64,000 nucleotides of DNA from an uncultured bacterium (GTDB lineage: Bacteria > Actinomycetota > Acidimicrobiia > Spongiisociales > UBA5794): assembly GCA_963801165.1 (NCBI GenBank), contig CAWDDT010000009.1, positions 288,001 to 352,000 on the forward strand, read 5' to 3'. Below the pieces are notes generated by a model. It worked only from the letters and a program-made list of their open reading frames with translations, was not told where the DNA came from and made no database searches. The position numbers were made by a program, and so were the translations under genes. Shown in pieces: positions 9,106 to 24,221 of the stretch (position 1 is the first letter of the stretch; every line of letters begins with the position of its first letter).

Positions 9106-9166
9106 TTGCGCTGTACTGTCGCTCACATGTAATCTGCACTTGTGTGCAACCGTGCACATTTGTGCA
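9106..9166 (+). promoter_or_regulatory. Putative promoter (TTGCGC-18-TAATCT) with tandem palindromic operators
   Basis: -35 at 9106-9111, -10 at 9130-9135; TGCACTTGTGTGCA at 9135-9148 and TGCACATTTGTGCA at 9153-9166. Confidence 0.65.
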
Positions 9167-9232
9167 GTGGCACGCAGGGGCCTGCCTTTGGCAGGTCCGA
9201 GGAGCGAGATGCCATTGGACGGAAGGAGCAAA

Positions 9233-10357
9233 ATGAATACAGGAATGAGGGCGGTTCCGCGCAGAGCGATCTGGCTCGGCGTGTTTGTCGTCGCGTTCTC
9301 GATGCTTGTCGCGGCCTGTTCCCAGGACACAAAGGACACGACGACGACAACAACAACCGAGGCGGCTGCGGTCGAGACGACTGCTGCCGGCGTCGCTATG
9401 CCTGCACCGTTCGACGGTGAGGTGAACATTGCCGTTGTTCAGAACAGCGGTGCTGGTGACTATTTCCAGCAGTGGACCAATGGTGCCAAGCTGCAAGCTG
9501 ACGCCATCGGCATCAAGTACACGTGGTACGACGCTCAGGCAGACAACGCCAAGCAGGCGACCGACATGGAGACCGCCATCGGCTCCGGTGTCGACGGTAT
9601 CGTGGTCGACCACGGTCAGACCGACACCATGTGCCCACTGATCAACGATGCCCTCAACGCCGGTATCCCGGTCGTCATCTATGACATCGCGATCGCAGAG
9701 TGTGCCCCGGATGCAGTTCAGACCCAGCAGTCCGACGCCAGCCTCGCCGATCTGTCCCTGGGACAGATGCTCGCCGACATCGGCCCGGATCAGGACGTTG
9801 GCTACGTCAACGTGCTCGGTATCGCTCCGCTCGACCGCAGGCATGTGGTCTGGCAGCAGTACACGGCCGACAACAACTGGAACCAGGTCTTCTTCGTCGG
9901 TGAGTTCACCAACGCTGTTGCTACCGACAACGCCCAGCTCGTTGACGCCGCGCTCAAGGCTAACCCCGACATTCGGGCGATCTTCGCTCCGTACGACGAG
10001 TTGACCAAGGGCACCGTATCGGCAATCAACGACAACGGCCTCGCCGATTCGATCTGGGCATACGGTATCGACATCTCGAATGCCGACATCGAGGTCATGA
10101 CCGCCGATGGCAGCCCGTGGAAGGCAACGGCCACGACCGACCCGAACGCGATCGGTGCCGCCGTCATGCGAACCATGGCTCTCGAGCTGGCGGGCCAGCA
10201 GGGCCCGCGTTCGGTGGACTTCCCCGGCGTGTTGGTGACCCAGCAGTTCCTGCTCGACAACAACATCACCAACATGGTGGACTTGCGGGCAACACTTCCC
10301 GAGCTGAACCTGTCCACCGTCCAGTCGGCAGACTGGATCCCGTCGGTCAAGTTCTAG
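9233..10357 (+). CDS. Sugar ABC transporter substrate-binding lipoprotein
   Basis: Lipobox LVAAC, Thr linker, RbsB-like periplasmic-binding features (GVDGIVVD, GIPVVIYD, AIFAPYDE); SD GAAGGAG. Confidence 0.88.
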   Translation: MNTGMRAVPRRAIWLGVFVVAFSMLVAACSQDTKDTTTTTTTEAAAVETTAAGVAMPAPFDGEVNIAVVQNSGAGDYFQQWTNGAKLQADAIGIKYTWYDAQADNAKQATDMETAIGSGVDGIVVDHGQTDTMCPLINDALNAGIPVVIYDIAIAECAPDAVQTQQSDASLADLSLGQMLADIGPDQDVGYVNVLGIAPLDRRHVVWQQYTADNNWNQVFFVGEFTNAVATDNAQLVDAALKANPDIRAIFAPYDELTKGTVSAINDNGLADSIWAYGIDISNADIEVMTADGSPWKATATTDPNAIGAAVMRTMALELAGQQGPRSVDFPGVLVTQQFLLDNNITNMVDLRATLPELNLSTVQSADWIPSVKF

Positions 10358-10439
10358 GAGGTACTCAGGTGGTCGTCGGCAGTATCAGCCGGTGGCCACC
10401 ACAATCCACCTGAGCCCATTGTCTGAGAGGATGATATCG

Positions 10440-11945
10440 ATGGAACCGGCAGTCACGATGGAAGGCATCACAATGGCCTTCGGACCCAATGAGGTGCTGA
10501 AGGGGATTGACCTTGCCATCGAGCCGGGAAAAGTGACGGCAATGCTCGGCGCCAACGGCGCCGGCAAGTCGACGCTGATCAAGGTCCTCTCGGGTGTATA
10601 CAACGGCTACGGGGGCGTCGTCGTCATCGACGGCGCCCCCGTCGTCATCGACCATCCAACCACGGCCAGGGCACTCGGCATCGAGGCGGTGCACCAGAAA
10701 ATCGCCGACGGCATAGTGCCCGGGCTGAGCGTTGCTGAGAACCTGCTGTTCGAGGGGATCGTCAACAACCAGGTGTCGCGGGTCGCCTCTCTGCGCTCGC
10801 TGATGCCGCGGGCGCGTCAGGTTGCGTCCGTTCTCGACCTCGATTGGTCCGACGATCTGCTCAGAGGCGATGTCTACGAGCTGCCAATTGCCGATCAGCA
10901 GCTCCTCCTCCTGGCACGAGCGCTCGATCACCAACCCCGGCTGCTGATTCTCGACGAGCCCACCTCTGCGCTCTCCGAGACCGAGGCGGAGCGTCTTTTC
11001 GACGTGATTCGCCAATTGCGCGACGGCGGCGTCGCCATCTTCTATGTGTCCCACCGCATCGCAGAGATCGACAGCATCGCGGACCGCCTGCTCGTTCTGC
11101 GCGATGGGGTGATCCGCAGCGAGCAGCTGCGACCATTCGACTGGGCGGCGGCGCTCCACGACATGCTCGACGTTGACGAGGCGGATCGATCGAACCGCAG
11201 TGCTGAGCAGCGGGGCACCGATGTGGCCCTCGAGCTCGCCGGCGTGCAACTCCTCCCCAAGTCCCAGCCCTTCGACCTCGTCATCCGCTCCGGTGAGGTC
11301 ACCGGAGTGTTCGGCCTGTTGGGCTCAGGCGGTGGTCAACTCGCTCACGGGATCTTCGGCGCCGAGCCGTTCGTGTCCGGCGAGATGGTCCTCAAAGGCG
11401 AGCCCTACTCCCCGAAAGCACCGGCCGACGCCATCGCCGCCGACGTCTACATGGTTCCCGAAGACCGGGTCGGAGGAACGTTGATCAAGGGCTGGACGGT
11501 GTCGATGATCGCCACCTTCCCATTCCTCGGGGACGTGTCCCGGCTGGGTGTTCTCAATCCTCTGGCCGAGGCGAAGGTGGGCCGCTCAGTGGTCCAGGAA
11601 TTCGGCGTTGTCGCCCAGTCGGAGGCGGAATCGGTCATGTCTCTCTCCGGCGGCAACCAGCAGAAGGTCGTCGTAGGCCGCTGGCTGCGTAAGCACCCCA
11701 CCGTGATGGTTCTCAACGAACCGTTCCAGGGTGTCGACGTCGGTGCCCGCCACGATCTCGCCGAGAAGGCACGCGAAGTTGCCGGGACGGGCTCGGCGGT
11801 GATCGTGATGTCTACAGATCTAGAAGAAATAATGGAAGTTTCCGACCGGGTCGTCGTGCTCGCGGACGGAAATCTCCGACACGATGCATATCTGTCGGAG
11901 ACAAGTAGGGATGAGATCCTGCAGCGACTCTCGGAGGTTGAGTAA
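10440..11945 (+). CDS. Sugar ABC transporter ATP-binding protein (tandem NBD, CUT2)
   Basis: GANGAGKSTLIK, LILDEPTSAL, LSGGNQQKV, GVDVGA. Confidence 0.93.
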   Translation: MEPAVTMEGITMAFGPNEVLKGIDLAIEPGKVTAMLGANGAGKSTLIKVLSGVYNGYGGVVVIDGAPVVIDHPTTARALGIEAVHQKIADGIVPGLSVAENLLFEGIVNNQVSRVASLRSLMPRARQVASVLDLDWSDDLLRGDVYELPIADQQLLLLARALDHQPRLLILDEPTSALSETEAERLFDVIRQLRDGGVAIFYVSHRIAEIDSIADRLLVLRDGVIRSEQLRPFDWAAALHDMLDVDEADRSNRSAEQRGTDVALELAGVQLLPKSQPFDLVIRSGEVTGVFGLLGSGGGQLAHGIFGAEPFVSGEMVLKGEPYSPKAPADAIAADVYMVPEDRVGGTLIKGWTVSMIATFPFLGDVSRLGVLNPLAEAKVGRSVVQEFGVVAQSEAESVMSLSGGNQQKVVVGRWLRKHPTVMVLNEPFQGVDVGARHDLAEKAREVAGTGSAVIVMSTDLEEIMEVSDRVVVLADGNLRHDAYLSETSRDEILQRLSEVE

Positions 11946-13010
11946 GTGGCCACAACAACGATGACGCCGAAGGGCACGAAGCAGGGGCCGCCAGGCACCG
12001 CGCCGCGTCGAGACGCCCGTGACCTGCTCGTCAAGTACGGCTTCATAGCAGTGACGGTGATCTTTCTCGTGTACTTCATGGCGACCCTGCCGGCGTTCCG
12101 AACCTCGTCGACGATGTTCACGATGCTGAAGTACATCTCGGTCGTTGCCATTGCCGGGTTGGGTGTGACCGTAACGATGGTCGTCGGTGGTCTCGATCTC
12201 TCGGTCGGGGCGACCGCCGGCATGTCGGTGACGGTCGCCGCGATGACGATGGTCATCTATGCGCAGCAGGGCTCGGTGGCAGTCATCGCCGTCATCGCGG
12301 CGGGTGCGATCATCGGTGCCGCTAATGCGCTGTTGATCGTGCTCATGAAGATCCCCGATCTGCTGGCGACCCTGGCAACGATGTTTCTCGTCCAGGGCTT
12401 GAAGCTCGTTCCCGTCGACGGGCAGTCGGTGTCCTCGGGGCTGATCCTCCGTGACGGGTCGGTGGCTCCCGGCAAGTTCACGACTGGCTTCCTCAGGATC
12501 AACCGCGGCTCGATCGGGCCGGTGCCATTCCCCGTGATCATCTTCGCGGTACTTGCGATCTTCACCTGGTTCCTGCTCTCTCGCACCAAGTGGGGCCGGG
12601 TCATGTATGCGATCGGGTCCAACCCGGAGGCGGCCCGTCTCGCCGGTGCCCGGGTCGGTCGCTACAAGGCGTTCGCCTACATGCTCTCCGGCATCTACGC
12701 ATCGATCGCAGGCCTGATTCTTGCCTCCCGTATCGGCCAGGGTGACATCTCTGCCGGGAACTCACTACTCCTCGATGCAGTCGCCGTGGCATTGGTCGGC
12801 ACGTCGGTGCTCGGTGTCGGCAAGCCGAACGCCTTCGGCACAGCGCTCGGCGCAATCCTCATCGGCATCCTTCTCACCGGCACGACCATGATGAACTTCC
12901 AGTACTACTGGCAGGACGTCGTCAAGGGCTTCGTACTCCTGGTTGCTCTGATCTTCTCCTTCACTCTGTCGAGACGGAAGCAACGATTCCAGGCGGCGGT
13001 GCCTCTATGA
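11946..13010 (+). CDS. Sugar ABC transporter permease (RbsC-like)
   Basis: GGLDLSVG, RTKWGRVMYAIGSNPEAARLAG motifs. Confidence 0.93.
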   Translation: MATTTMTPKGTKQGPPGTAPRRDARDLLVKYGFIAVTVIFLVYFMATLPAFRTSSTMFTMLKYISVVAIAGLGVTVTMVVGGLDLSVGATAGMSVTVAAMTMVIYAQQGSVAVIAVIAAGAIIGAANALLIVLMKIPDLLATLATMFLVQGLKLVPVDGQSVSSGLILRDGSVAPGKFTTGFLRINRGSIGPVPFPVIIFAVLAIFTWFLLSRTKWGRVMYAIGSNPEAARLAGARVGRYKAFAYMLSGIYASIAGLILASRIGQGDISAGNSLLLDAVAVALVGTSVLGVGKPNAFGTALGAILIGILLTGTTMMNFQYYWQDVVKGFVLLVALIFSFTLSRRKQRFQAAVPL

Positions 13011-14122
13011 GCGCTGATCAGGCCAGCAGGACCATCTGGATCGATCCCGTCGACCCCGCCTCCGTCGTCTGTATCGATCAGCGCCTGCTCCCCTTCGAGT
13101 ACCAGGAAGTTGCCATCCGCACCTCGAGCGAGATGGCGACGACGATTGCCGACATGGTTGTCCGCGGCGCCGGGTGCATCGGGGTGTCGGCCGGCTACGG
13201 CATGTATCTGGCGGCCCTCGCCACCGACGGTCTGGGCGCCGCCGAAGCGGATGCGTCGCTACACATGGATGCCAAGGAGCTCGAGGGGAGTCGGCCGACC
13301 GCGGTCAACCTGAGCTGGGCGGTGCAGCGTCAACTGAGGGAGCTGCTCGGTGTTGAGGGTTCGGAGGAGCGGATCGCCAGGGCCAGGGCGCTGGCGGACA
13401 CTATCGCCGACGAGGACGTGTCGTACTGCGCTGCCATCGGTCGCCACGGGCTGGGCATCATCGAAGACCTCCACGACCGCAAGGGCGACACGGTCAACAT
13501 CATGACCCACTGCAATGCGGGTTGGCTGGCGTTCGTCGAGCACGGAACGGCCACTGCTCCCATGTACGCAGCCCACGCAGCGGGCATCCCCATCCATGTC
13601 TACGTCTCGGAGACGCGTCCCCGCAACCAGGGTGCCCGGCTGACGGCCTGGGAGCTGGACCGGGCCGGGATCCCGGTCACCGTGATCGCCGACAACGCGG
13701 CCGGTCACCTGCTGCAGCACGGCATGGTGGACATGGTCATCGTCGGTAGCGATAGAACCACGATCAGCGGTGACGTCGCCAACAAGATCGGCACCTACAT
13801 GAAAGCCGTGGTGGCCAAGGAGAACGGCGTCCCGTTCTACGCCGCACTGCCATCGAGCACGCTTGATCCCAAGCTGCACGACGGTGTCACCGAGATCCCG
13901 ATCGAAGAGCGGGGCGGGCACGAGGTCACCAAGACGACCGGATGGTTCGACGGCAGGCAGGTCGAGATGCAGTCGGCGGCTCCCGGCGTGGGCGCCGCCA
14001 ACTATGGGTTCGACGTCACCCCGCGCCGGTTCGTGACCGGGATCATCACCGAGCGCGGTGTCTGCGAGGCGAACGAACAAGCAATCCTGGCGATGTATCC
14101 CGAGTTCGCCGCAAAGGGATGA
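13007..14122 (+). CDS. mtnA: S-methyl-5-thioribose-1-phosphate isomerase (paralog 1)
   Basis: IDQRLLP, MVVRGAG, RPTAVNL, THCNAGWLA, ETRPRNQGARLTAWEL, GDVANKIGTY, FDVTP. Confidence 0.9.
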   Translation: MSADQASRTIWIDPVDPASVVCIDQRLLPFEYQEVAIRTSSEMATTIADMVVRGAGCIGVSAGYGMYLAALATDGLGAAEADASLHMDAKELEGSRPTAVNLSWAVQRQLRELLGVEGSEERIARARALADTIADEDVSYCAAIGRHGLGIIEDLHDRKGDTVNIMTHCNAGWLAFVEHGTATAPMYAAHAAGIPIHVYVSETRPRNQGARLTAWELDRAGIPVTVIADNAAGHLLQHGMVDMVIVGSDRTTISGDVANKIGTYMKAVVAKENGVPFYAALPSSTLDPKLHDGVTEIPIEERGGHEVTKTTGWFDGRQVEMQSAAPGVGAANYGFDVTPRRFVTGIITERGVCEANEQAILAMYPEFAAKG

Positions 14123-14151
14123 AGACCGGGTAGCGGGGCAGAAGGAAACCA

Positions 14152-16119
14152 ATGCACAACAGGTGGAGTGAGGAGCGGGCGGCCGGCTTCGAGAGCCCTC
14201 TCGATCGGTGCGTGTATGCCTCGAGACTGCTCGGCGCAGACACGGCGCTCGTTCTGCACGGCGGCGGCAACACATCTGTGAAGCTCAGGGAGCAGAATCT
14301 CTACGGCGAGCCGGTCGATGTGCTCTACATCAAGGCGAGCGGTCGAGACCTCGTCGACATTGACGACGAGGGATTTGCCCCTCTCGACCTCACCCGGGTG
14401 CGCCGGCTCGTCGAGCTGGATGAGCTCTCGGATACCGCGATGCTCAACGAGTTGAAGGGGGCCCGGCTGAGCGCAGACGCACCCGTGCCCTCGGTCGAGG
14501 CGATCCTGCACGCAATCATCCCCAGCCACGCCGTGCAGCACGCTCATCCCAACGCGCTCCTCGCCATATCGAACACCGTCGACGGTGAGGAGAAGGTCAG
14601 AAAGCTATACGGGAGCCGAGTGGTCGTCGTTCCGTACACGATGTCGGGATTCCGCGCCGCGACCGCGGCCGCAAGGGCCTACGCCCGGGAGGCGACCGGC
14701 GAAACTGAAGGTGTTGTGCTCATGAACCACGGCATCTTCACCTTCGGGGATTCACCCCGCGAGGCATATCACCGGATGGTCGACCTGGTCGGTGCCGCCG
14801 AGGACTTCCTCGCCGAGCACTCGATGGGGGGAGAGTCGCCCCGGCCGGATCGAGAGCCCCCGGTCATCGACCGGTGCGACCTGGCCGGCCTCCGCAAGGA
14901 GATCTCGGATATCGCCGGGAAGCCGTGCATCGTGCGTCGTCACCGTGACGAGGTCAGCTGGGCGTTCTCGCAGCGCCCCGACCTGGCAGCGGTGAGCCAG
15001 CAGGGAGTAGCAACACCCGACCATGTCATCTGGACCAAGCGGGTTCCGCTCCTGGGTCGGGACGTTGCCACCTACGCCAAGGACTACGAGGCCTACTTCG
15101 ACGAATATGCGGTCGGGCGCGCGCTCCGAATGCTCGATCCGGCGCCACGGGTGATCATCGACCCCGAGTTGGGGATGGTCACCGCCGGGCCCGATGTCGA
15201 CGCCGAGCAGGCGGCCGCCGACATCTATCTCCAGATCATCGACGTCATCGAGCACGCTGAGGGCCTGGGCGGCTACTCCGCCCTTCCCGCCGGTGACATT
15301 TTCGATCTCGAGTATTGGGAGCTGGAGCAGCTGAAGCTCGACCTCGTTCCCCATGAGGGTGAGTTCACCGGCGAGGTCGCCGTGGTCACCGGGGCGAACT
15401 CAGGGATCGGGCGTGGCTGCGCGCTGGCGCTGCTGGCAAAGGGAGCGGCAGTAGTGGGCCTCGACATCAACCCCGCGGTTTCCGAGATGTCGGACGATCC
15501 CGCCTTCTACGGCATCCAGTGTGACCTCTCCTCGCCGCAGGAAACCTCGGCCGCGCTCGACCGTGGTGTCGAGCGATTCGGCGGCGTCGACATGCTCGTG
15601 GCCGCCGCAGGGCTCTTCCCCGAATCGTCCCCGATCTCCGCTCACGACCCGACCGCGTGGCGCCGAGCCATGTCCGTCAACGTCGACGGACTGGTGCAAC
15701 TCCTGTCGATGATGCACCCCCTCCTCGTGCAGGCGCCGCGCGGCGGTCGTGTCGTGGTGATCGGATCGAAGAACGTCGTCGCACCCGGTCCGGGCGCCAG
15801 CGCCTACTCGGCTTCCAAGGCAGCCGCCAACCAGATCGCACGTGTCGCGGCGCTCGAATGGGCGCCGGAGGGGATCAGGGTCAACTCGGTCCATCCGGAC
15901 GCGGTCTTCGATACCGCATTGTGGACACCGGAGCTCCTGGCGGCACGGGCGGCGCACTACGGCATGACCGTTGAGGACTACAAGCGCCGCAACCTGATGA
16001 GTGTGGAGATCACCAGCGCCGCGGTCGGCGAGGTCGTTGCCACGATGCTCGGCGACGTCTTCGGCACGATTACGGGGGCGCATATCCCCATAGACGGCGG
16101 CAACGACCGCGTGATTTGA
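14152..16119 (+). CDS. Bifunctional class II aldolase / short-chain dehydrogenase
   Basis: LHGGGNTSVK, PSVEAILH, HAH and NHG metal ligands; C-terminal VTGANSGIG and YSASK (YxxxK). Confidence 0.88.
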   Translation: MHNRWSEERAAGFESPLDRCVYASRLLGADTALVLHGGGNTSVKLREQNLYGEPVDVLYIKASGRDLVDIDDEGFAPLDLTRVRRLVELDELSDTAMLNELKGARLSADAPVPSVEAILHAIIPSHAVQHAHPNALLAISNTVDGEEKVRKLYGSRVVVVPYTMSGFRAATAAARAYAREATGETEGVVLMNHGIFTFGDSPREAYHRMVDLVGAAEDFLAEHSMGGESPRPDREPPVIDRCDLAGLRKEISDIAGKPCIVRRHRDEVSWAFSQRPDLAAVSQQGVATPDHVIWTKRVPLLGRDVATYAKDYEAYFDEYAVGRALRMLDPAPRVIIDPELGMVTAGPDVDAEQAAADIYLQIIDVIEHAEGLGGYSALPAGDIFDLEYWELEQLKLDLVPHEGEFTGEVAVVTGANSGIGRGCALALLAKGAAVVGLDINPAVSEMSDDPAFYGIQCDLSSPQETSAALDRGVERFGGVDMLVAAAGLFPESSPISAHDPTAWRRAMSVNVDGLVQLLSMMHPLLVQAPRGGRVVVIGSKNVVAPGPGASAYSASKAAANQIARVAALEWAPEGIRVNSVHPDAVFDTALWTPELLAARAAHYGMTVEDYKRRNLMSVEITSAAVGEVVATMLGDVFGTITGAHIPIDGGNDRVI

Positions 16120-16194
16120 GAACACCGCACGTGAGGTGCGGAGAAAAGTTGACAGATAGCTAGCCCCTCGGAGCAGGGGACAGGAGGATGGAGA

Positions 16195-16989: not shown

Positions 16990-16992
16990 CCC

Positions 16993-17289
16993 ATGGAGTT
17001 CCTCGCCCGTCTCGAGCAGAACATCTCTCCGGACATGGATCCGGACCGGCTTGCGGCAGTGAAAACGGCTGAGAAGGCCCGCGGTCGGGAGTTGGTCGAG
17101 GCCGGCAAGCTGCGCCGCATCTGGAGGATCCCCGGGAGGAGGGCGGTATACGCGCTCTACCGGGTCGACAGCACCGAGGAGCTCCACGAGATCCTCAGCT
17201 CGCTGCCGCTGTACCCCTGGATGGACATAGAGGTAACCGCATTGAGCGCCCATGCGCTCGATCCCGAGAGTTGGGAGGGTGTTGCTTAA
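16993..17289 (+). CDS. Muconolactone delta-isomerase family protein
   Basis: 98 aa; EKARGREL...IWRIPG...ELHEILSSLPLYPWMDIEVTALSAH. Confidence 0.85.
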   Translation: MEFLARLEQNISPDMDPDRLAAVKTAEKARGRELVEAGKLRRIWRIPGRRAVYALYRVDSTEELHEILSSLPLYPWMDIEVTALSAHALDPESWEGVA

Positions 17290-17394
17290 TCGCCGTGAAG
17301 GGTCGCAATGCCTCGAGGTGCTTGCGCGTCGATCCAGGCGTCGAGCCTGAACTGGAATTATTCAACACACTCCAAAGAGCGGAGGAGAAGAAGG

Positions 17395-18609
17395 ATGGCC
17401 CCCGACTACGAGATCCTCAACCCGGAGACGGTCCCGGCATACATCGACAGAACACCCCGGCTGGACGGCATCGTCGACACCTCCACGCTGGAAGTGTCGG
17501 AGGTCGGTGACGGTAACCTGAACCTCGTCTTCGTCTGCAAGGATGGAAACGGCGACGGCATCTGTCTCAAGCAGTCGTTGCCCTACGTCCGGCTGGTCGG
17601 CGAGGGGTGGCCGCTGACACCGGAGCGAGTCATCGCCGAGGCGCGCGGGCTCGCCGCTGCTGTCGATCACGTCCCGGATCTGGTTCCCGCCTATTACGGA
17701 CTGGACGAGGCCAACTATGTGCTGGCCATGGAGAACCTCATTGGCTGGGACATGTGGCGGACCCAGCTGAATGAGGGTGTCTCCCACCCCGGTGTCGGCG
17801 CCAAGCTCGGCCGGTACGTGGCCAATCTCTGTTTCTACACCTCGTTTTTCACCATCGATCAGGGCGAGATCAAAGAGCGGCTCGCCGCAGCGATCAACCC
17901 GGAGCTGTGCAAGATCACCGAGGACCTCGTCTTCACCGAGCCGTACATCGATGTCCCCAACAACAGTTACGTCGATGAGCTGGTCCCCGAGGTGGAGGGC
18001 ATGCGCGCCGACGCCAGGCTCCGCGCCGACGTCGGGATGCTGAAGTACAAATTCATGACCGCAGGGCAGGCGCTGATCCACGGCGACCTGCACACCGGCT
18101 CCGTCATGGTGCGCCGTGGTGAGAACGGCGCCGAGTGCAAGGTCATCGACCCCGAGTTCTGCTACTACGGGCCGGTGGGCTTCGATCTCGGTGCGCTCTT
18201 TGGCAACTACCTCGCCGCCCGGGCCCGCGCCGCAGTTCTCGACCGACCAGCCGAATACCAGCAATGGTTGGCCGATCTGGGTCCGGAGACGTGGGATGCC
18301 TTCGCCGCGGAGATGCACCGCTTGTGGCCGGAGCGGCTCGACAAGACATGGACCGACGGTTTCCTCGAGGCCTGGCTGGCCCAGGTCGCCAGGGACACCA
18401 TCGGGTACGGCGGCTGCAAGGCGAACCGGCGCATCATCGGGCTCGCCAAGGTCACCGACATCCAGCAACTCCCGAACGAAGAGCACGTCAAGGCGGCCAC
18501 GATGGTTCTCCGCACCGCCAGCACCTGGATTCGGGAGCGCGACGGCCTCGGGACCGTCGCCGCGGCCAACGAGGTGTTCGAGACGATCCGGGCGAAGGTC
18601 CTGGGCTGA
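17395..18609 (+). CDS. mtnK: S-methyl-5-thioribose kinase
   Basis: EVGDGNLNLVF, KQSLPYVRLVGEGWPL, ITEDLVFTEPY, LIHGDLHTGS, IDPEF. Confidence 0.95.
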   Translation: MAPDYEILNPETVPAYIDRTPRLDGIVDTSTLEVSEVGDGNLNLVFVCKDGNGDGICLKQSLPYVRLVGEGWPLTPERVIAEARGLAAAVDHVPDLVPAYYGLDEANYVLAMENLIGWDMWRTQLNEGVSHPGVGAKLGRYVANLCFYTSFFTIDQGEIKERLAAAINPELCKITEDLVFTEPYIDVPNNSYVDELVPEVEGMRADARLRADVGMLKYKFMTAGQALIHGDLHTGSVMVRRGENGAECKVIDPEFCYYGPVGFDLGALFGNYLAARARAAVLDRPAEYQQWLADLGPETWDAFAAEMHRLWPERLDKTWTDGFLEAWLAQVARDTIGYGGCKANRRIIGLAKVTDIQQLPNEEHVKAATMVLRTASTWIRERDGLGTVAAANEVFETIRAKVLG

Positions 18610-19691
18610 TGTTGGATCTCTCGCTGGCCGATGACTTCCTCGCCAAGCTGCAACCGTCGGTGGCCTGGGTCGACGATCACATCGAGATCATCGACCAGAC
18701 CAAGCTGCCCGCCGAGCTCGAGATCCTCCAACTGCGCCGGGTCGACGAGGTGGTCGACGTTATCTACCGGCTGGCGGTGCGGGGGGCGCCCGCGATCGGG
18801 GCATGTGGCGCCCTCGGCATGGTCGTCGGCCTCGACGAAAGGCAGCCGCAAACCGCGGCCGACGCAGTTGCCGTGCTCGACGAGCTTGTGGAGACGATCG
18901 GCAACGCCCGGCCCACCGCGGTGAACCTGAGCTGGGCGGTGAAACGCCTGCGGGACGCCGCCGTGTCCGGAAGCGATGCCGCCGGGGTGAGACGGCTTGC
19001 CATGGCGGAAGCCCGGGCGATCATCGCCGAGGATCGCGACGCCTGCACCCGGATCGGTATCAACGGCCGCAAAGAGCTCGAGGGTCTGGACAAGATCCTC
19101 ACGCACTGCAACACAGGCAGACTCGCCACCGCCGGTTGGGGCACTGCTCTCGGCGTCGTCTATGCGAAGGCAGCGGCCGGTGAGCCGGTCGAGGTGCTTT
19201 CCTCCGAAACACGGCCGCTGTTGCAAGGTGCCCGGCTGACAACCTGGGAGTTGCACGACGCCGGTATCCCGGTGACCCTCATGCCGGACGGAGCCAGCTC
19301 CACGGCGATGGCGCAGGGCAAGGTCCAGGCGGTCATTGTCGGCGCCGATCGGATTGCTGCCAACGGCGACACCGCCAACAAGATCGGGACCCTTACCCAC
19401 GCCGTCAACGCCAGGTTCGCCGGGATCCCTTTCTACGTGGCCGCTCCGCTCTCGACGTTCGATACCTCTTTGAGCAGCGGCGCCGGGATAGAGATCGAGC
19501 TGCGGCCCGATGACGAGATGAGGAGGTGGCGGTCGGAGCCGACCGCCCCGGGCGACATTGCGGTGTGGAACCCCGCCTTCGACGTGACCCCCGCCGATTT
19601 GATCACCGCAATCATCACCGAGGTTGGGGTGCTGAAGCCCCCCTATGAGGAGTCGATCCGGGTCGCCTTCGAGGCTGGAGGGAAACCGTGA
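18609..19691 (+). CDS. mtnA: S-methyl-5-thioribose-1-phosphate isomerase (paralog 2)
   Basis: IDQTKLP, VRGAPAIG, RPTAVNL, THCNTGRLATAGWGTALG, ETRPLLQGARLT, GDTANKIGT, NPAFDVTP. Confidence 0.92.
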   Translation: MLDLSLADDFLAKLQPSVAWVDDHIEIIDQTKLPAELEILQLRRVDEVVDVIYRLAVRGAPAIGACGALGMVVGLDERQPQTAADAVAVLDELVETIGNARPTAVNLSWAVKRLRDAAVSGSDAAGVRRLAMAEARAIIAEDRDACTRIGINGRKELEGLDKILTHCNTGRLATAGWGTALGVVYAKAAAGEPVEVLSSETRPLLQGARLTTWELHDAGIPVTLMPDGASSTAMAQGKVQAVIVGADRIAANGDTANKIGTLTHAVNARFAGIPFYVAAPLSTFDTSLSSGAGIEIELRPDDEMRRWRSEPTAPGDIAVWNPAFDVTPADLITAIITEVGVLKPPYEESIRVAFEAGGKP

Positions 19692-20587
19692 GCGAATGGA
19701 AGCAGGCGACCCAAGCGGTTGCCGACGGCATACGCCGGCGGGTGCTCGAGCACGTACTCGCCAACAACGGCGGATATATGAGCCAGGCATGCTCCGCGGC
19801 TGAGATCTTTGCGATGTTGTATTCCCGGGTGATGAACCTCGGTGCCAGCCAGGCCCCTCTCGAGCCTCGCCGGTTTGCGGGCGTGCCCGGCCCGGGAGTG
19901 CCCTTCATCACCGGCGCTGACTACAACGGGCCCCGCGGACCCGGGTACGACCGCTTCATCTTCTCCCCGGCTCACTATGCATTGGTGCTGTATGCCACCC
20001 TGATCGAGGTTGGCAGGCTTGCCGAGAGGGGGCTTGATCACTTCAACGAAGATGGCAGCACGGTCGAGATGATCGGTGCCGAGCATTCCCCCGGTGTCGA
20101 GACCACCACCGGGTCTCTCGCTCAAGCGTTGAGCCAGGCCGGCGGTATCGCCCTGGCACGCAAGCTGCGTGGCGACACCGGCAACGTCTGGGTGATGATG
20201 TCCGACGGTGAGTTTCAGGAGGGACAAACCTGGGAGGCCGTCGCACAGGTCGCCCGCTTCGAACTCGACAACCTCAGGGTCATCGTCGATGCGAACGGCC
20301 AGCAATGCGACGGCTGTCTCGACGAGGTGGAGACGGCCGACCCGTTGACAAACAGGATCCGGGCGTTCGGTGCCAGCGCCATCGAGAGCAACGGGCACGA
20401 TCTCGACGGTCTGGAAGAGGCGATGACTATGGCGACCGGCAAGCCGCACTTCGTGATTGCCCGGACGGACCCGGTGCGCGGGCTTCCTCTGTTTGCGGAT
20501 AGAGCACCCCTGTTGCACTACTTGCGTTTCACCTCACCCGAGGAGAGGGCCCGTTACGAGGCGGCTTACGAAGAGATGGTGAGTTGA
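19688..20587 (+). CDS. Transketolase-like ThDP enzyme, N-terminal subunit
   Basis: DRFIFSPAH, PGVETTTGSLAQ, SDGEFQEGQTWEA...DANGQQ ThDP-binding motif. Confidence 0.88.
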   Translation: MSEWKQATQAVADGIRRRVLEHVLANNGGYMSQACSAAEIFAMLYSRVMNLGASQAPLEPRRFAGVPGPGVPFITGADYNGPRGPGYDRFIFSPAHYALVLYATLIEVGRLAERGLDHFNEDGSTVEMIGAEHSPGVETTTGSLAQALSQAGGIALARKLRGDTGNVWVMMSDGEFQEGQTWEAVAQVARFELDNLRVIVDANGQQCDGCLDEVETADPLTNRIRAFGASAIESNGHDLDGLEEAMTMATGKPHFVIARTDPVRGLPLFADRAPLLHYLRFTSPEERARYEAAYEEMVS

Positions 20588-20588
20588 G

Positions 20589-21596
20589 ATGGAGATCGTC
20601 AAGCGGCCGCACGTTCAGAATTTCATCGATTGGAGTCGCGATAAGCCCGAGGTGGTCGTCCTCACCGCCGATCTGACCAACTCGAGCGAGGTGGGGCAAT
20701 GGCGGGACACCTACCCCGACCGCTTCTTTGCGATGAAGATGGCCGAGCAGAACATGATGGGTTTCGCCGCCGGGCTTGCCCGCGAGGGCTACGAGCCGTG
20801 GATACACACCTTCGCCGTGTTCATCTACCGGCGTCCGCTCGATCAGCTTGCCATGTCGATCGCATACCCCAACCTTCCGGTGCGGTTTGTCGGGTTCCTC
20901 CCCGGGATCACGACTCCAGGCGGGGTCACTCACCAGGCTATTGAGGATCTCGCCGTGATGCGGGCGACGCCGAACATGACCATCCTCGAGACCGGCGACG
21001 CCACCGAGGTAGAGAGCGTGCTCGATGTCGCCCACGGTGTCGAAGGGCCCGTCTACATCCGGATGTTGCGAGGCGAGGTACCCCGGTTGTTCGCCAAAGA
21101 CGAGCCGATGCGGCTCGACAAGGTCAGGGTGCTCAGCGAGGGCGACGACGTCACCGTGTTCACCGCCGGTATCACCACAGAAGAGGCCATGCGAGCGGCC
21201 GCTCCTCTCGCCGCTGCCGGGGTCGGGATGACCCATGTCCATGTCTCGACCCACAAGCCGTTCAGCGATCCCCTGATCGTCGAGTCGATCAAACGCGCCA
21301 GGTACGGCGTGATGACGCTGGAGAACCACACGATCATCGGTGGCCTCGGCTCGGCGGTGGCTGAGTTGATGGCGGAGAACGCCGTCGGGCAACGTCTTGT
21401 CAGGCTGGGTCTGCGTGACACGTACGCTCACGGCGCCAGCCGGCAGTACCTGATGAAGGAGTACGGTCTCGATGCCCCCGCTCTTGTGAAGGGCATCGAA
21501 GACCTCCTCGGGAGACCGACGGGGATCACGGAGCCGGATCTCGAAGCGGTGCGTATCGAAGCCGTCCATAGCATGGCCAAGGCGGAGGCGCTGTGA
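20589..21596 (+). CDS. Transketolase-like ThDP enzyme, C-terminal subunit
   Basis: LTADL, AEQNMMGFAAGLA, THQAIED, GPVYIR, ENHTIIGGLGSAVAE. Confidence 0.9.
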   Translation: MEIVKRPHVQNFIDWSRDKPEVVVLTADLTNSSEVGQWRDTYPDRFFAMKMAEQNMMGFAAGLAREGYEPWIHTFAVFIYRRPLDQLAMSIAYPNLPVRFVGFLPGITTPGGVTHQAIEDLAVMRATPNMTILETGDATEVESVLDVAHGVEGPVYIRMLRGEVPRLFAKDEPMRLDKVRVLSEGDDVTVFTAGITTEEAMRAAAPLAAAGVGMTHVHVSTHKPFSDPLIVESIKRARYGVMTLENHTIIGGLGSAVAELMAENAVGQRLVRLGLRDTYAHGASRQYLMKEYGLDAPALVKGIEDLLGRPTGITEPDLEAVRIEAVHSMAKAEAL

Positions 21597-22726
21597 TGAT
21601 CGAGCCGACTTCCCTCACCGTCAGCGGCGGCCGAATCGAAGCCGTATACGAGTTCTATGGTGACGTTGCCGAGGCGGAAGCGCGCGTCGATGCCTTGCGG
21701 GTGGAACAGACGATCGAGTTCCCGGCCGACCTCGTCCCGGATGACGACATCCAGCGGGAGGTCGTCGGCCGTGTCGAGTCGCTCGAAGTAGTAGGCGACG
21801 ATGTGACGCGTGCCGCGATCAGCTATGCCGTGGAGGACACCGGGTTCGAACTCCCCCAGCTCATGAACGTCCTGTGGGGAAATAGCGCCTTGCTGCCGGG
21901 AATCCGGCTCGTGGACTTCACCCTGCCAGATTCTCTGCTGGAGTACTTTCCCGGACCGACGTACGGAATCGCGGGTCTCCGCGAGATGTTCGACGCACCG
22001 TCCCGTCCTCTGCTGGCGACTGCGCTGAAACCGATGGGTCTGTCGTCCGAGCGGCTGGCCGGCGAGGCATACGAGCTTGCGCTGGGTGGAATCGACATGA
22101 TCAAGGACGACCACAGCCTCGCCAACCAGCCTTTTGCCCCGTTCGCAGAGCGGGTGCAGCGCTGCGCCGAGGCGGTGGCCAAGGCGAACGAGCAGACCGG
22201 TTTCGGGGCCGTCTATATGCCGAGCATCAACGCCCCGTACAACGAGCTGGAGCGGCGTGTGGAGGTTGCCCTGGACGCCGGCGCAGGTGCGTTTCTCGTC
22301 CTCCCCGGTCTCACCGGGTTCGATCAGATGCGCTATTTGGCCTCCGAGGTCGACGTCCCCATCATGGGGCACCCCGCCTTCCTCGGCTCGTACTCTGCCT
22401 CCCCGACAAACGGCATTGCCCACGGCAAGCTGTACGGAACGTTGATGCGTCTCGCCGGTGCCGACCTCTCGATCTTTCCGAACTTTGGCGGCCGATTCAG
22501 TTTCACCCGTGAAGAATGCCGTGACGTCGCCGAGCGCCTCACCGAGCCGCTTGGCGACTTGAAGCCGGCGTTCCCGGCACCGGGTGGAGGCATGACTCTC
22601 TCGAGAGTTAGCGAGATAGTCGACTTCTACGGCAACGACGCGGCGCTTCTCATCGGCGGCGATCTCTATCGTGGGGAGAGCCTGGCGAGAACCGCAGCCG
22701 CCTTTCGCGAAGCGGTATCCGCCTGA
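21593..22726 (+). CDS. RuBisCO-like protein, form IV (KDDH type, resembling 5-methylthioribulose-1-P 1,3-isomerase)
   Basis: EQTIE, GNSAL, FPGP.YG, ALKPMG, GGIDMIKDDH, HPAF, PGGG motifs; only 377 aa; no small subunit or PRK. Confidence 0.88.
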   Translation: MMIEPTSLTVSGGRIEAVYEFYGDVAEAEARVDALRVEQTIEFPADLVPDDDIQREVVGRVESLEVVGDDVTRAAISYAVEDTGFELPQLMNVLWGNSALLPGIRLVDFTLPDSLLEYFPGPTYGIAGLREMFDAPSRPLLATALKPMGLSSERLAGEAYELALGGIDMIKDDHSLANQPFAPFAERVQRCAEAVAKANEQTGFGAVYMPSINAPYNELERRVEVALDAGAGAFLVLPGLTGFDQMRYLASEVDVPIMGHPAFLGSYSASPTNGIAHGKLYGTLMRLAGADLSIFPNFGGRFSFTREECRDVAERLTEPLGDLKPAFPAPGGGMTLSRVSEIVDFYGNDAALLIGGDLYRGESLARTAAAFREAVSA

Positions 22727-22756
22727 TCGATCCTCGCCGGCAGCGGCGAGCCCGTA

Positions 22757-23692
22757 TCAGGCGAGAAGTGCCCTGGCGAGACCGTCGTCGATGGCCAGTT
22801 CGTTGATGATGCCTGCGGCGATTGCTCCCTTGACCGGTTCCACCTTCTCAACTCCGCCCGCGGCCGCGATGACCCGTTTCGAAGCCCTCAGATCGTCGAG
22901 TGTCAGTGAGATGGGGTGTAGTGCGTCCGGTTTCACGGCGTTGCCATCTGCGTCGTAATACAGGCCAAAAACCTCTCCGACCGCGCCTGCGGCGATGATT
23001 TCCTCCATGGCGTCTTCATCGAGATAGCCGGCCTGCACCAGGAGCGACTCGGGGCCGATGACGCCCACGGCCACCATCACCATGTCGGCCTTGCGGGCGC
23101 GCTCGAGCGCCGTCGCCACCGGCTCGGATGCGAAGAAGTTGCCGGCGACCTCGGCCGATGGGGCGAATCCAGGGGATGGGATGTGCATGACTCTGGCGCC
23201 GAACTTCAGCCCCAACGTGTTCGTGACCTCGACCGCGGGGGCGATGTTGGCCGTGGTCGTGTGACCGAAAGCGTCCACCAGCGTCACTCCGGAGGTACGT
23301 GTGCGCCGCGCTCGTTGGGCGGCGGCACCAAGCGTTCGTCCCCACCCGGCCGCAATCGTGGTCGAGCCGGTTGCCACCATATGCTCCAATCTGCGGGCCA
23401 TGGCAGTTGCGGCCCCCTCTCGGGGTGACTCGCCATCGAGCGCTACCTCGACGGTAGCCCCGGCCAGCCCGTACTTCTCGATGAGTTCCTCAGCCAGGCT
23501 CGCGGTCTCCGGCAGCGGCTCAGTTACGATCACGCGCACGATGCCGTCGCGGGCAGCGTCGGCGAGGAGACGGCTCACCGTTGACCGGGAGATCCCCAAC
23601 CGATCGGCAACGGCCTGTTGATTGAAACTACGCTCGTGATAGAGCCAGGCCGCCCGGATTGCGAGCTCTCTGCGAGGATTGTCGTCGTCCAC
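22757..23692 (-). CDS. SorC/DeoR/LsrR-family sugar-binding transcriptional regulator
   Basis: AAWLYH...QQAVADRLGISRSTVSRLL HTH; GWGRT, GAVGEV, AGGVEK, LAID sugar-binding domain. Confidence 0.92.
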   Translation of the reverse strand: MDDDNPRRELAIRAAWLYHERSFNQQAVADRLGISRSTVSRLLADAARDGIVRVIVTEPLPETASLAEELIEKYGLAGATVEVALDGESPREGAATAMARRLEHMVATGSTTIAAGWGRTLGAAAQRARRTRTSGVTLVDAFGHTTTANIAPAVEVTNTLGLKFGARVMHIPSPGFAPSAEVAGNFFASEPVATALERARKADMVMVAVGVIGPESLLVQAGYLDEDAMEEIIAAGAVGEVFGLYYDADGNAVKPDALHPISLTLDDLRASKRVIAAAGGVEKVEPVKGAIAAGIINELAIDDGLARALLA

Positions 23693-23700
23693 TAGCGGGA

Positions 23701-23748
23701 AGTATCATCCTTCCGCGAGCATTTGTCTAACCCACGCACATTTGTGCA
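23701..23748. promoter_or_regulatory. Divergent promoter region with operator boxes
   Basis: CGCACATTTGTGCA at 23735-23748 plus degenerate CGAGCATTTGTCTA at 23716-23729; matches the 9153 box. Confidence 0.65.
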
Positions 23749-23768
23749 CGGGCGTCTGGGAGGCGAAG

Positions 23769-24221
23769 ATGAGAACGTCGGGTGTCCTTCATCCAGGGCT
23801 GATCGAACTCATCGCGGCGGCTGGTCACGGCGATCATATCGTGCTGGCCGATGCCGGTCTTCGGATCCCCGACGACAAGGCACGTATCGACCTCGGTGTT
23901 ACTTGTGGTGTGCCAACGATGGCGCAGGTAGTGGCTGCGGTGAAGCAAGAGTTGGTGATCGAGGCGGCAATCGTCGCCACCGAGTTCTCCGACTGGAATC
24001 CGGACGTCTATCGCGACGTCACCGGTCTTCTCGAAGTTGAGCCGACGGCGAAACCGCACGCCGAACTGATGGCCGACGCTGCAGAATCAGCGTTTGCGTA
24101 TGTGAAAACGGGTGAGTGCACAGCCTATTCGAGCGTTGTACTGGTATGCGGTGTGAATTACCTGGACGAGGCGGTGGCGTTGTACAAGGAGCTGCACCCG
24201 GTGGCCCCTGATCCGTTCTGA
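23769..24221 (+). CDS. rbsD: D-ribose pyranase (RbsD/FucU family)
   Basis: GHGDHIVLADAGL, IDLGV, VKTGECTAYSSV. Confidence 0.85.
   Translation: MRTSGVLHPGLIELIAAAGHGDHIVLADAGLRIPDDKARIDLGVTCGVPTMAQVVAAVKQELVIEAAIVATEFSDWNPDVYRDVTGLLEVEPTAKPHAELMADAAESAFAYVKTGECTAYSSVVLVCGVNYLDEAVALYKELHPVAPDPF

Follow-up and report, generated by a model that had tools for sequence, protein, structure and literature searches.

An uncultured soil bacterium of the class Acidimicrobiia carries an accessory gene island that probably serves the uptake and catabolism of 5-methylthioribose (MTR), 5-deoxyribose, or both, under the control of a SorC-family repressor. The island lies in a 64-kb stretch of DNA (positions 288,001 to 352,000 of contig CAWDDT010000009.1, assembly GCA_963801165.1; G+C content ~64%), which is called the window below and to which positions refer unless a locus is named. 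It consists of twelve plus-strand genes packed over 9233-22726, with intergenic gaps of -4 to 75 bases and four 4-base overlaps, a convergent gene for the SorC repressor, and an RbsD/FucU gene that is divergent from the repressor gene. Gene identities were taken from Pfam and NCBIfam profile searches, and every gene named in a preliminary description of this DNA was found by them in the order given there. The start of the island had been placed at 9106, a position inside the promoter; the first gene begins at 9233, after a GGAAGGAG ribosome site. We infer the upper half of the pathway (import, anomer supply, C1 phosphorylation, and isomerization) from the families to which the proteins belong. 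The reactions of the lower half and the carbon-scavenging purpose are proposals, and all enzyme activities named below are predicted ones.

Import and activation of the sugar

The operon begins with a CUT2 (ribose-type) ATP-binding cassette (ABC) importer that consists of a lipoprotein solute-binding protein (SBP; 9233-10357, + strand; PF13407, Peripla_BP_4 type), an ATPase with two ABC_tran domains (10392-11945, +), and a BPD_transp_2 permease (11946-13010, +). The SBP gives the first indication of the substrate. In a PDB sequence search its best match was 4ry8 (191 bits), followed by 5ulb (140 bits), while the other binding proteins listed, ribose-binding ones included, scored 29-59 bits. 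Likewise, the top Foldseek match of its AlphaFold model was 4RY8 (35% identity, TM 0.90, E 1e-30), an entry titled '5-methylthioribose transporter solute binding protein TLET_1677'. The model used was built from a 13-row alignment (pLDDT 84), and a single-sequence model (pLDDT 44) was discarded. Thus, the SBP is of the MTR type by its closest solved relative, because sequence and fold both point to 4RY8, and it is a probable MTR/5-deoxyribose binder. The likeness to TLET_1677 is one of overall sequence and fold, at an identity of only 35%.

The enzymes predicted to act on the imported sugar are an MtnK-family kinase (5-methylthioribose/5-deoxyribose 1-kinase; 17308-18609, +) and two members of the MTR-1-phosphate isomerase family, MtnA1 (13007-14122, +) and MtnA2 (18606-19691, +), which are 42% identical to each other. 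All three exceed their equivalog cut-offs: the kinase scored 394 bits with TIGR01767 (cut-off 275), and MtnA1 and MtnA2 scored 391 and 404 bits with TIGR00512 (cut-off 279). A characterized MtnK-family kinase accepted 5-deoxyribose and MTR, and its activity with 2-deoxyribose was undetectable, according to the accessible part of PMC6079011. The true start of the island kinase may be an ATG at ~17395 because the TIGR01767 match starts only at residue 34.

Where would such sugars come from? The nucleosidase MtnN releases MTR and 5-deoxyribose from methylthioadenosine (MTA) and 5'-deoxyadenosine, which are by-products of S-adenosylmethionine (SAM). The genome (4.55 Mb, 13 contigs) encodes this MTA/S-adenosylhomocysteine nucleosidase (NF004079, 235 bits; cut-off 169), and the organism would therefore make MTR/5-deoxyribose sugars itself. 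The enzymes of several known routes for related compounds were searched for as well. A genome search gave no MtnB match at the cut-off, and neither acireductone dioxygenase (ARD) nor LuxS was found in the genome. The LsrK model had no match over its cut-off and none in the window, and a control likewise fell under the cut-off in E. coli. No ABM-family (LsrG) protein was matched on the contig, the 16 Cupin_2 matches of the genome included none in the window, and the window held no FGGY gene. The reported absence of mtnB, ARD, a cupin, lsrK, and lsrG therefore holds, at the scale of the genome for ARD and for MtnB at its cut-off, and at that of the window for the others. A second copy of the gene for MtnK, MtnA, the RuBisCO-like protein, LsrF, or the muconolactone-isomerase-fold protein (the last three are described below) was not found in the genome either. 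Taken together, a SAM-derived 5-substituted ribose is the best candidate for the substrate.

The RuBisCO-like protein and its transketolase

The last gene of the operon encodes a form IV RuBisCO-like protein (RLP) of 377 residues with ALKPMG and IKDDH motifs (21593-22726, +; PF00016). Its best PDB match is 3qfw (259 bits), which shares the IKDDH motif, and all other solved RLPs and RuBisCOs, including the YkrW and Photo types, scored at most 155 bits. 3qfw is presumably the DeepYkr RLP of Rhodopseudomonas palustris; a paper calls it only an RLP structure. The RLP is also linked by its genomic position to an enzyme that forms MTR-1-phosphate and to MtnA, since MtnK and MtnA2 are encoded upstream in the same operon. 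DeepYkr RLPs are 1,3-isomerases of 5-methylthioribulose-1-phosphate (MTRu-1-P) whose product is 1-methylthio-xylulose/ribulose-5-phosphate, as stated in the available text of PMC5893883. The island RLP is thus a probable ketose-1-phosphate 1,3-isomerase, judged from its relatives. Two other RLP functions were considered and rejected. An apiose-type function was rejected on the score with the OiaX model (81 bits; cut-off 700), and a 2,3-diketo-5-methylthiopentyl-1-phosphate enolase on the scores with the MtnW models (212 and 157 bits; cut-offs 409 and 514) and the lack of an MtnB match at the cut-off in the genome.

Directly upstream, two genes encode an atypical split transketolase: an N-terminal diphosphate-binding subunit (TK-N; 19688-20587, +; PF00456) and a C-terminal pyrimidine-binding subunit (TK-C; 20589-21596, +; PF02779 and PF02780). 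The end of the TK-C gene and the start of the RLP gene share 4 bases. The best PDB matches of TK-N and TK-C are 6yak and 6yaj, respectively, both from the split transketolase of Carboxydothermus hydrogenoformans. With the NF004559 transketolase model the subunits scored only 157 and 205 bits (cut-off 488). The enzyme and its RLP-linked relatives, nine in all, were aligned with E. coli TktA, whose residue numbers were verified on the K-12 sequence. The residues for thiamine diphosphate (ThDP), Mg, and cofactor activation (H66, D155, N185, E411, and H473) are kept in all nine enzymes. Among the phosphate residues, S385 and R520 are kept in all nine and R358 in eight. The same nine enzymes have Y in place of H26, F in place of H461, and G in place of D469, and they lack a His at the H100 position. 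The canonical His and Asp residues are all present in the nearest solved enzyme, that of Carboxydothermus. The equivalent of H261 is probably a His conserved within an 'LLHY' motif, where the alignment is unsure. Furthermore, all RLP-linked TK-N subunits have an insertion of ~27 residues (consensus P..PF.GVPGP......G; window 19820-19910, residues ~45-75) that is absent from E. coli TktA. On their sequences, the RLP-linked transketolases are a distinct subfamily.

In transketolases, H100 and H473 hold the C1 hydroxyl of the donor, and D469 reads the 2-hydroxyl of the acceptor. The loss of the C1-hydroxyl contact at position 100 would fit a donor that has no C1 hydroxyl, such as a 1-deoxy or 1-methylthio sugar.

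The aldolase-dehydrogenase fusion, LsrF, and a small isomerase fold

Between MtnA1 and MtnK, the operon encodes three further proteins. The first is a fusion of a class II aldolase with a short-chain dehydrogenase (SDR) (14152-16119, +; NF006196, 913 bits; cut-off 831). Its aldolase domain keeps the equivalents of FucA N29, E73, H92, H94, and H155 in all variants and so looks like a working metal-dependent aldolase or enolizing enzyme. Because these catalytic and zinc residues are kept, cleavage of the type found in the dihydroxyacetone phosphate (DHAP) shunt probably belongs to the lower routes.

The second is an LsrF-like class I aldolase/thiolase of the DhnA type (16195-16989, +; NF006081, 333 bits; cut-off 297). 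It shares 43% identity with E. coli LsrF, and the equivalents of D57 and of K203, the latter presumably the Schiff-base lysine, are conserved. LsrF cleaves 3-hydroxy-2,4-pentanedione-5-phosphate (phospho-HPD) with CoA into DHAP and acetyl-CoA. The gene follows the fusion subtype of the window (at least 44% identity) in seven of eight loci, which come from three RLP clades. It never follows a remoter fusion subtype (30-33% identity).

The third is a 98-residue protein with the muconolactone-isomerase (MIase) fold (16993-17289, +; PF02426, 1e-30), a candidate keto-enol isomerase. It scored 91 bits with the muconolactone delta-isomerase model TIGR03221 (cut-off 131), and its best PDB matches were 3znj and 1mli. 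Its neighbors are LsrF and MtnK, with no catechol-pathway context. BLAST found no similarity between it and LsrG, and MIase homologs in 12 of 400 other Actinomycetota genomes had no adjacent LsrF. The preliminary description had spoken of degradation enzymes for autoinducer-2 (AI-2). That label is apt for LsrF but does not extend further, as the MIase-fold protein lacks LsrG similarity and the SBP is not LsrB-like. A 133-residue SnoaL/NTF2-like protein, another small isomerase-type fold, is encoded between MtnK and TK-N at L001:7591-7992 and also in L072 and L077 (the L-numbered loci are defined below), a place comparable to that of the MIase-fold gene in the window.

Regulation of the island

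The SorC-family repressor gene (22757-23692, -; PF04198 and a helix-turn-helix domain) and a repeated palindrome indicate how the island may be controlled. A tandem palindromic operator (TGCACTTGTGTGCA and TGCACATTTGTGCA; 9134-9167, no strand) occupies the promoter of the long operon, and a third copy (CGCACATTTGTGCA; 23735-23748) lies between the SorC gene and rbsD; 19 bases upstream of it there is a weaker one. With 2 mismatches or fewer allowed, the only sites of TGCACATTTGTGCA in the 64-kb window are at 9135 and 9153, upstream of the SBP gene and spaced by 18 bases, and at 23735, in the spacer that separates the repressor gene from rbsD. When up to 3 mismatches are allowed, the number of matches is 7, where 2.1 are expected, and none of 100 shuffles reached this count. 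Of 11 related loci, 10 retain the motif in the SorC-RbsD spacer. A common operator at both promoters, as proposed earlier, is thus borne out by the confinement of the palindrome to them. A scan for promoters and terminators gave counts no higher than in shuffles. In the island of another genus (L010, positions 9809-9841), the spacer from the aldolase-SDR gene to lsrF holds two further operator copies, which suggests an internal regulated promoter there.

The repressor had been labeled as LsrR-type. It is 28% identical to LsrR and 25% identical to E. coli YjhU/MtnR (full-length alignment, E 8e-28), and hence no closer to the one than to the other. Its scores with the Bacillus DeoR model (167 bits) and the LsrR model (104 bits; cut-off 486) are both far below the cut-offs. 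YjhU is MtnR, the repressor of the mtnK-mtnA-ald2 operon of the DHAP shunt in E. coli, according to the part of PMC12632272 that was available.

The divergent gene (23769-24221, +; PF05025; NF008761, 103 bits; cut-off 93) encodes an RbsD/FucU-family pyranase or mutarotase. In locus L042, an RbsD homolog sits between TK-C and RLP. The next gene encodes an EamA-family membrane transporter (24264-25091, +; PF00892) that is possibly a member of the island; homologs with 68-74% identity stand at the cluster end in L025, L026, and L070. The flanks hold a fused ABC exporter with membrane and ATPase domains upstream (6877-9078) and a PAS/GAF histidine kinase downstream (25077-26969, -), and no link of either to the island was seen.

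Conservation and genomic contexts

RLP loci (L-numbers) were collected from 6 genome contigs, sampled genomes, and metagenome contigs, and the window proteins were mapped onto them by tblastn. The metagenome scan yielded 589 candidate stretches, of which 476 encode a relative; the best 80 of them were used. The 92 RLP loci were then dereplicated at 90% RLP identity, which left 80 clusters, and clusters with at least 9 kb of flank (n = 41) are called long. The gene caller used for the loci was crude (GC3-based) and may miss small or unusual genes, and the RLP tree is a quick IQ-TREE maximum-likelihood version.

Among the genomes sampled, 3 of 201 from the class and 5 of 401 from the phylum carry the RLP, the genome of the window counted in each. 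Where the full island occurs elsewhere it is well kept. A genome from a different genus of the same family (L010) preserves the order of all fourteen genes, with identities of 64-81%, and the fourteen-gene order is likewise kept in the metagenome loci L025, L030, and L031. The synteny with L010 and the rarity of the RLP agree with the proposal, made in the preliminary description, of one co-regulated accessory island.

How general is the association between the RLP and the transketolase? Of all 80 clusters, 57 have a transketolase beside the RLP; the figure is 41 of the 52 that extend at least 2.5 kb upstream, and 27 of the 33 that extend at least 2.5 kb to either side. Carriers of the pair include Actinomycetota, one metagenome-assembled genome (MAG) of Pseudomonadota, and one of Myxococcales. 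In other words, the RLP and the split transketolase form the conserved core. The remaining genes vary more. In the long clusters, MtnA and/or MtnK occur in 21 of 41, 18 of these with the transketolase, and MtnA2 is of the MtnA type usual with the transketolase-RLP cassette, being the best-matching MtnA in 20 of 41. The aldolase-SDR fusion was found in 14 long clusters and MtnK in 11; LsrF and the MIase-fold gene were found in 3 each.

In 5 of the 41 long clusters the place of the Mtn genes is taken by an FGGY kinase, a stand-alone class II aldolase, or both, and 4 of these have the transketolase. This other front end with the same type of RLP is seen in L011:5086-19551 (continued in L020; from the order of the window organism), L070, L093, L095, L101, L004, and L016. 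Its genes code for another ABC importer, a XylB-like FGGY kinase, alcohol dehydrogenases of the Zn and Fe types, and a class II aldolase-family protein that resembles AraD/FucA. The transketolase and a SorC regulator are usually there too, and no MtnK or MtnA was in view. The stand-alone aldolases of the FGGY-type loci match the models for L-ribulose-5-phosphate 4-epimerase and ribulose-1-phosphate aldolase, below the cut-offs. Mtn and FGGY contexts are interspersed on the RLP tree, where the FGGY label takes 7 changes for 8 rows.

Several other contexts were observed. A low-GC variant (L071, L074, L085-L087, L094, and L104) has the order MtnA, aldolase-SDR, RLP and lacks a transketolase within 10 kb; after it comes a gene for an ArAE/FUSC-like membrane protein, which recurs in 10 loci. 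A Pseudomonadota MAG (L002:3-8119) has a gene for a TonB-dependent receptor, then MtnA-transketolase-RLP, then a concentrative nucleoside transporter, and a uridine-phosphorylase-like PNP_UDP_1 gene after the RLP in L059 (11164-11913) is another link to nucleosides. In L040:863-13229, and also in L044, L046, and L096, genes for two ribose-type SBPs, the ABC components, MtnK, MtnA, the transketolase, and the RLP lie on one strand, and the operon ends with genes for an SBP_bac_1-like protein (385 residues) and a SorC regulator on that same strand.

In two metagenome loci (L065:4256-11137 and L090:4290-11107), the cassette stands directly after genes for an aldehyde dehydrogenase, bacterial microcompartment (BMC) shell protein(s), and an EutN/CcmL vertex protein, with a divergent sugar ABC importer nearby. 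The BMC genes and the aldehyde dehydrogenase hint at a volatile or toxic aldehyde as the product of the cassette. These loci may represent an undescribed microcompartment type with the cassette as its aldehyde-forming step; the sugar-phosphate microcompartment described in the accessible portion of PMC11585597 uses DERA, not an RLP-transketolase cassette. Since it also occurs behind FGGY-kinase front ends and beside microcompartment genes, the cassette is a portable module.

A proposed pathway

In the proposed pathway, the sugar would be imported by the lipoprotein SBP and its ABC transporter, RbsD would give the right anomer, MtnK would phosphorylate C1, and MtnA would convert the sugar-1-phosphate into a 5-substituted ribulose-1-phosphate. 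From this point two routes may be followed. In route (a), the RLP would shift the carbonyl in the manner of DeepYkr to give a 1-substituted xylulose/ribulose-5-phosphate, and the coupled transketolase-like ThDP enzyme would cut the C2-C3 bond to give glyceraldehyde-3-phosphate (GAP) and a two-carbon fragment. The fragment may be (methylthio)acetaldehyde or acetaldehyde, or else an acetyl unit from which methanethiol has been lost. A phosphoketolase-like loss of methanethiol to give acetyl-ThDP is chemically attractive because the ThDP enamine formed from the thio sugar would have a good beta leaving group.

In route (b), the aldolase-SDR fusion would act on the ribulose-1-phosphate. One option is aldol cleavage as in the DHAP shunt, with subsequent oxidation of the aldehyde. 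The other option is that the SDR half oxidizes the C4 hydroxyl of the ribulose-1-phosphate. Oxidation of 5-deoxyribulose-1-phosphate at C4 would give, atom for atom, phospho-HPD, the substrate of LsrF. LsrF would then produce DHAP and acetyl-CoA, with the MIase-fold protein replacing LsrG as a keto-enol isomerase. Elimination of methanethiol from 1-methylthio-xylulose-5-phosphate would give phosphorylated 4,5-dihydroxy-2,3-pentanedione (phospho-DPD), the substrate of the LsrG step, which would provide the MIase-fold protein with a plausible job. The presence of two MtnA copies, together with the arrangement of the genes (first MtnA1-aldolase/SDR-LsrF-MIase, then MtnK-MtnA2-transketolase-RLP), suggests two branches, perhaps one for each sugar.

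A bolder version, which we consider doubtful, is that the island achieves complete aldehyde-free assimilation of both SAM by-product sugars through two undescribed reactions, one coupled to the RLP and one based on the fusion. In the first reaction, the transketolase-like enzyme would be a ThDP lyase for 1-methylthio- or 1-deoxy-xylulose-5-phosphate, and with the thio sugar it would act like a phosphoketolase, expelling methanethiol and leaving GAP and an acetyl unit. In the second reaction, the aldolase-SDR would make phospho-HPD or phospho-DPD without LuxS or LsrK, either by C4 oxidation of 5-deoxyribulose-1-phosphate or by elimination of methanethiol from the RLP product. The product would then be converted to DHAP and acetyl-CoA by the MIase-fold isomerase and LsrF.

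Relation to known pathways

Three known pathways resemble parts of the island. The MTA-isoprenoid shunt of Rhodospirillum rubrum and Rhodopseudomonas palustris uses MtnP, MtnA, a DeepYkr RLP, and a cupin methylsulfurylase. In both systems MtnA makes, or would make, MTRu-1-P, and a form IV RLP of presumably the same branch probably isomerizes it (PMC5893883, the part at hand). Unlike the shunt, the island would use an importer and MtnK for entry instead of MtnP, and it has no cupin in the window. Its RLP gene lies between the TK-C and SorC genes, and an altered split transketolase is translationally coupled to the RLP. The island also adds the aldolase-SDR fusion, LsrF, and the MIase-fold protein.

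The DHAP shunt consists of MtnK/MtnP, MtnA, and Ald2 and is represented by DrdK/DrdI/DrdA in Bacillus thuringiensis and by mtnK-mtnA-ald2 with MtnR in E. coli. The island likewise has MtnK, MtnA, a class II aldolase with intact catalytic residues, and an adjacent repressor gene. It differs in the fusion of the aldolase to an SDR, in its two MtnA paralogs, and in its dedicated ABC importer. The RLP, transketolase, LsrF, and MIase-fold protein of the island have no counterpart in the DHAP shunt.

The Lsr pathway for AI-2 in E. coli consists of LsrACDB, LsrK, LsrG, LsrF, and LsrR. Its likeness to the island lies in the LsrF homolog with its conserved D57 and K203 equivalents, a SorC-family repressor, and a CUT2 importer. 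Unlike the Lsr pathway, the island has no LsrK or LsrG, its SBP is of the MTR-binding type, and the MIase-fold protein is at the place of LsrG. For the island LsrF, the source of the substrate would have to be a 5-deoxy or 5-methylthio pentulose phosphate and not phosphorylated AI-2.

The transketolase can be compared with canonical and split enzymes (TktA; 6yak/6yaj) in the same way. Like the split type it has two subunits, and it has in common with these enzymes the Mg site, the Glu that activates ThDP, H66 and H473, and the residues that bind phosphate (R358, S385, and R520). It differs from them in Y26, F461, and G469, in the missing His at position 100, in the ~27-residue insertion, and in the RLP that is always adjacent to it in the loci examined.

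Which part of the pathway is new? The preliminary description stated that the lower half matches no known route. This is too broad for the aldolase, whose intact residues make a cleavage of the DHAP-shunt type probable, but it may stand for the RLP-transketolase step and the use of LsrF. Neither the pairing of an RLP with a transketolase nor a link of LsrF to MTR or 5-deoxyribose was found in the literature searched, which lies outside the primary RLP papers and their supplements. Wider searches returned only work on the known shunts, on the Calvin cycle, and on the DERA microcompartment. Within that literature, the RLP-transketolase step and this use of LsrF are undescribed. The upper steps are known, and the aldolase route is probably known too.

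Alternative explanations

Several observations weigh against the proposal that the island degrades MTR and 5-deoxyribose through the routes above. Three lower modules acting on one intermediate look redundant. RbsD belongs to a family of pyranases, yet neither MTR nor 5-deoxyribose can form a pyranose, a conflict that would be resolved if RbsD acted as a mutarotase. The loss of D469 fits poorly with a GAP product or a xylulose-5-phosphate-like donor. Position 251 of the LsrF-like protein is N in the clade of the window, not D. In L026, the exception among the eight loci with the window subtype of the fusion, which belongs to a close relative of the island, lsrF is missing and the MIase-fold gene is kept, with a 95-base gap (L026:5417-5512) from the aldolase-SDR gene to the MIase-fold gene. 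The transketolase is missing in 6 of 33 well-flanked RLP loci, and a variant with MtnA, aldolase-SDR, and RLP exists without it. Neither an Mtn nor an FGGY front end was seen in 15 of the 41 long clusters, a group that is only partly annotated and of which 12 have the transketolase. The contexts without Mtn genes, interspersed as they are on the tree, indicate that the substrate of the cassette need not be a methylthio or 5-deoxy sugar.

One alternative concerns the purpose of the island. It may serve the salvage of sulfur for methionine and not carbon catabolism, as the sole such route in this organism, so that the MTR made by the cell itself is detoxified and its methanethiol is freed for methionine, in analogy with the MTA-isoprenoid and DHAP-methanethiol shunts. 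The transketolase-like enzyme would then take the place of the cupin. This is consistent with the presence of MtnN in a genome with no MtnB at the cut-off, no ARD, and no other MtnK or MtnA. The closeness of the RLP to 3qfw, presumably a DeepYkr protein, also fits. Methanethiol is released by both known shunts, according to the available part of PMC5893883. However, a dedicated importer of the high-affinity type, a sugar-type repressor, and DHAP, GAP, and acetyl-CoA as products point to external scavenging, and relatives seldom have the island (3 of 201 genomes and 5 of 401), which would be odd for a housekeeping salvage route. Furthermore, the analogous DHAP shunt lets E. coli grow on MTR/5-deoxyribose sugars, as the accessible text of PMC12632272 states. 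We regard sulfur salvage as the purpose as unlikely, and the two purposes do not exclude each other.

Alternatively, the island may act on an ordinary pentose whose 5-hydroxyl is free, for example D-ribose or the ribose-1-phosphate of nucleosides, and handle it through ribulose-1-phosphate. The aldolase would then yield DHAP and glycolaldehyde, and the RLP would supply the transketolase with xylulose-5-phosphate or ribulose-5-phosphate. The ribose (CUT2) type of the importer, the RbsD score above the D-ribose pyranase cut-off, the RbsD homolog inside the L042 operon, and the matches of the FGGY-type-locus aldolases to models for ordinary pentulose phosphates, below cut-off as they are, all speak for such a sugar. 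They are opposed by the SBP, with 191 bits to an MTR binding protein and 29-59 bits to ribose-binding proteins, and by a kinase well over the MTR kinase cut-off. A transketolase with H26, H461, and D469 replaced and no His at position 100 would also be needless for such a substrate. An ordinary pentose is accordingly quite improbable.

An Lsr-type system for the uptake and degradation of AI-2 (DPD) is very improbable. The LsrF homolog exceeds its equivalog cut-off, the repressor belongs to the SorC family like LsrR, and the importer ATPase is 33% identical to LsrA. But the SBP, whose best match is an MTR binder, is 23% identical to LsrB over 197 residues of a partial alignment, the repressor is far below the LsrR cut-off, and the window holds no LsrK-type kinase, ABM/LsrG protein, or FGGY gene. 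LsrF occurs in only 3 of 41 long RLP loci, and MtnK, MtnA, the RLP, and the transketolase would have no role in the Lsr pathway. That unrelated operons lie side by side by chance, as the modular cassette with its varied front ends and the restriction of LsrF and the MIase-fold gene to one sub-lineage might suggest, is hardly credible given the fourteen-gene order at 64-81% identity in another genus and in L025, L030, and L031, the overlapping start and stop codons, and the operator common to both promoters.

Implications

To our knowledge, MTA and 5'-deoxyadenosine are made by every cell, the known disposal routes for them miss many bacteria, and most form IV RLPs are still without a function. 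The cassette of an RLP and a remodeled transketolase is abundant in environmental DNA, with 476 relatives in one metagenome scan. Through the cassette, the RLP product would meet a new fate and the transketolase family would gain a new type of reaction. The proposals are directly testable, since all the proteins are soluble and of small size and enzymes can be used to make the substrates. The link between the aldolase-SDR fusion and LsrF suggests a wider metabolic role for the AI-2 thiolase; if the bolder version above is true, LsrF would have a role outside the quenching of quorum signals. On the same condition, the RLP-transketolase cassette would be a widespread and portable alternative to the cupin.

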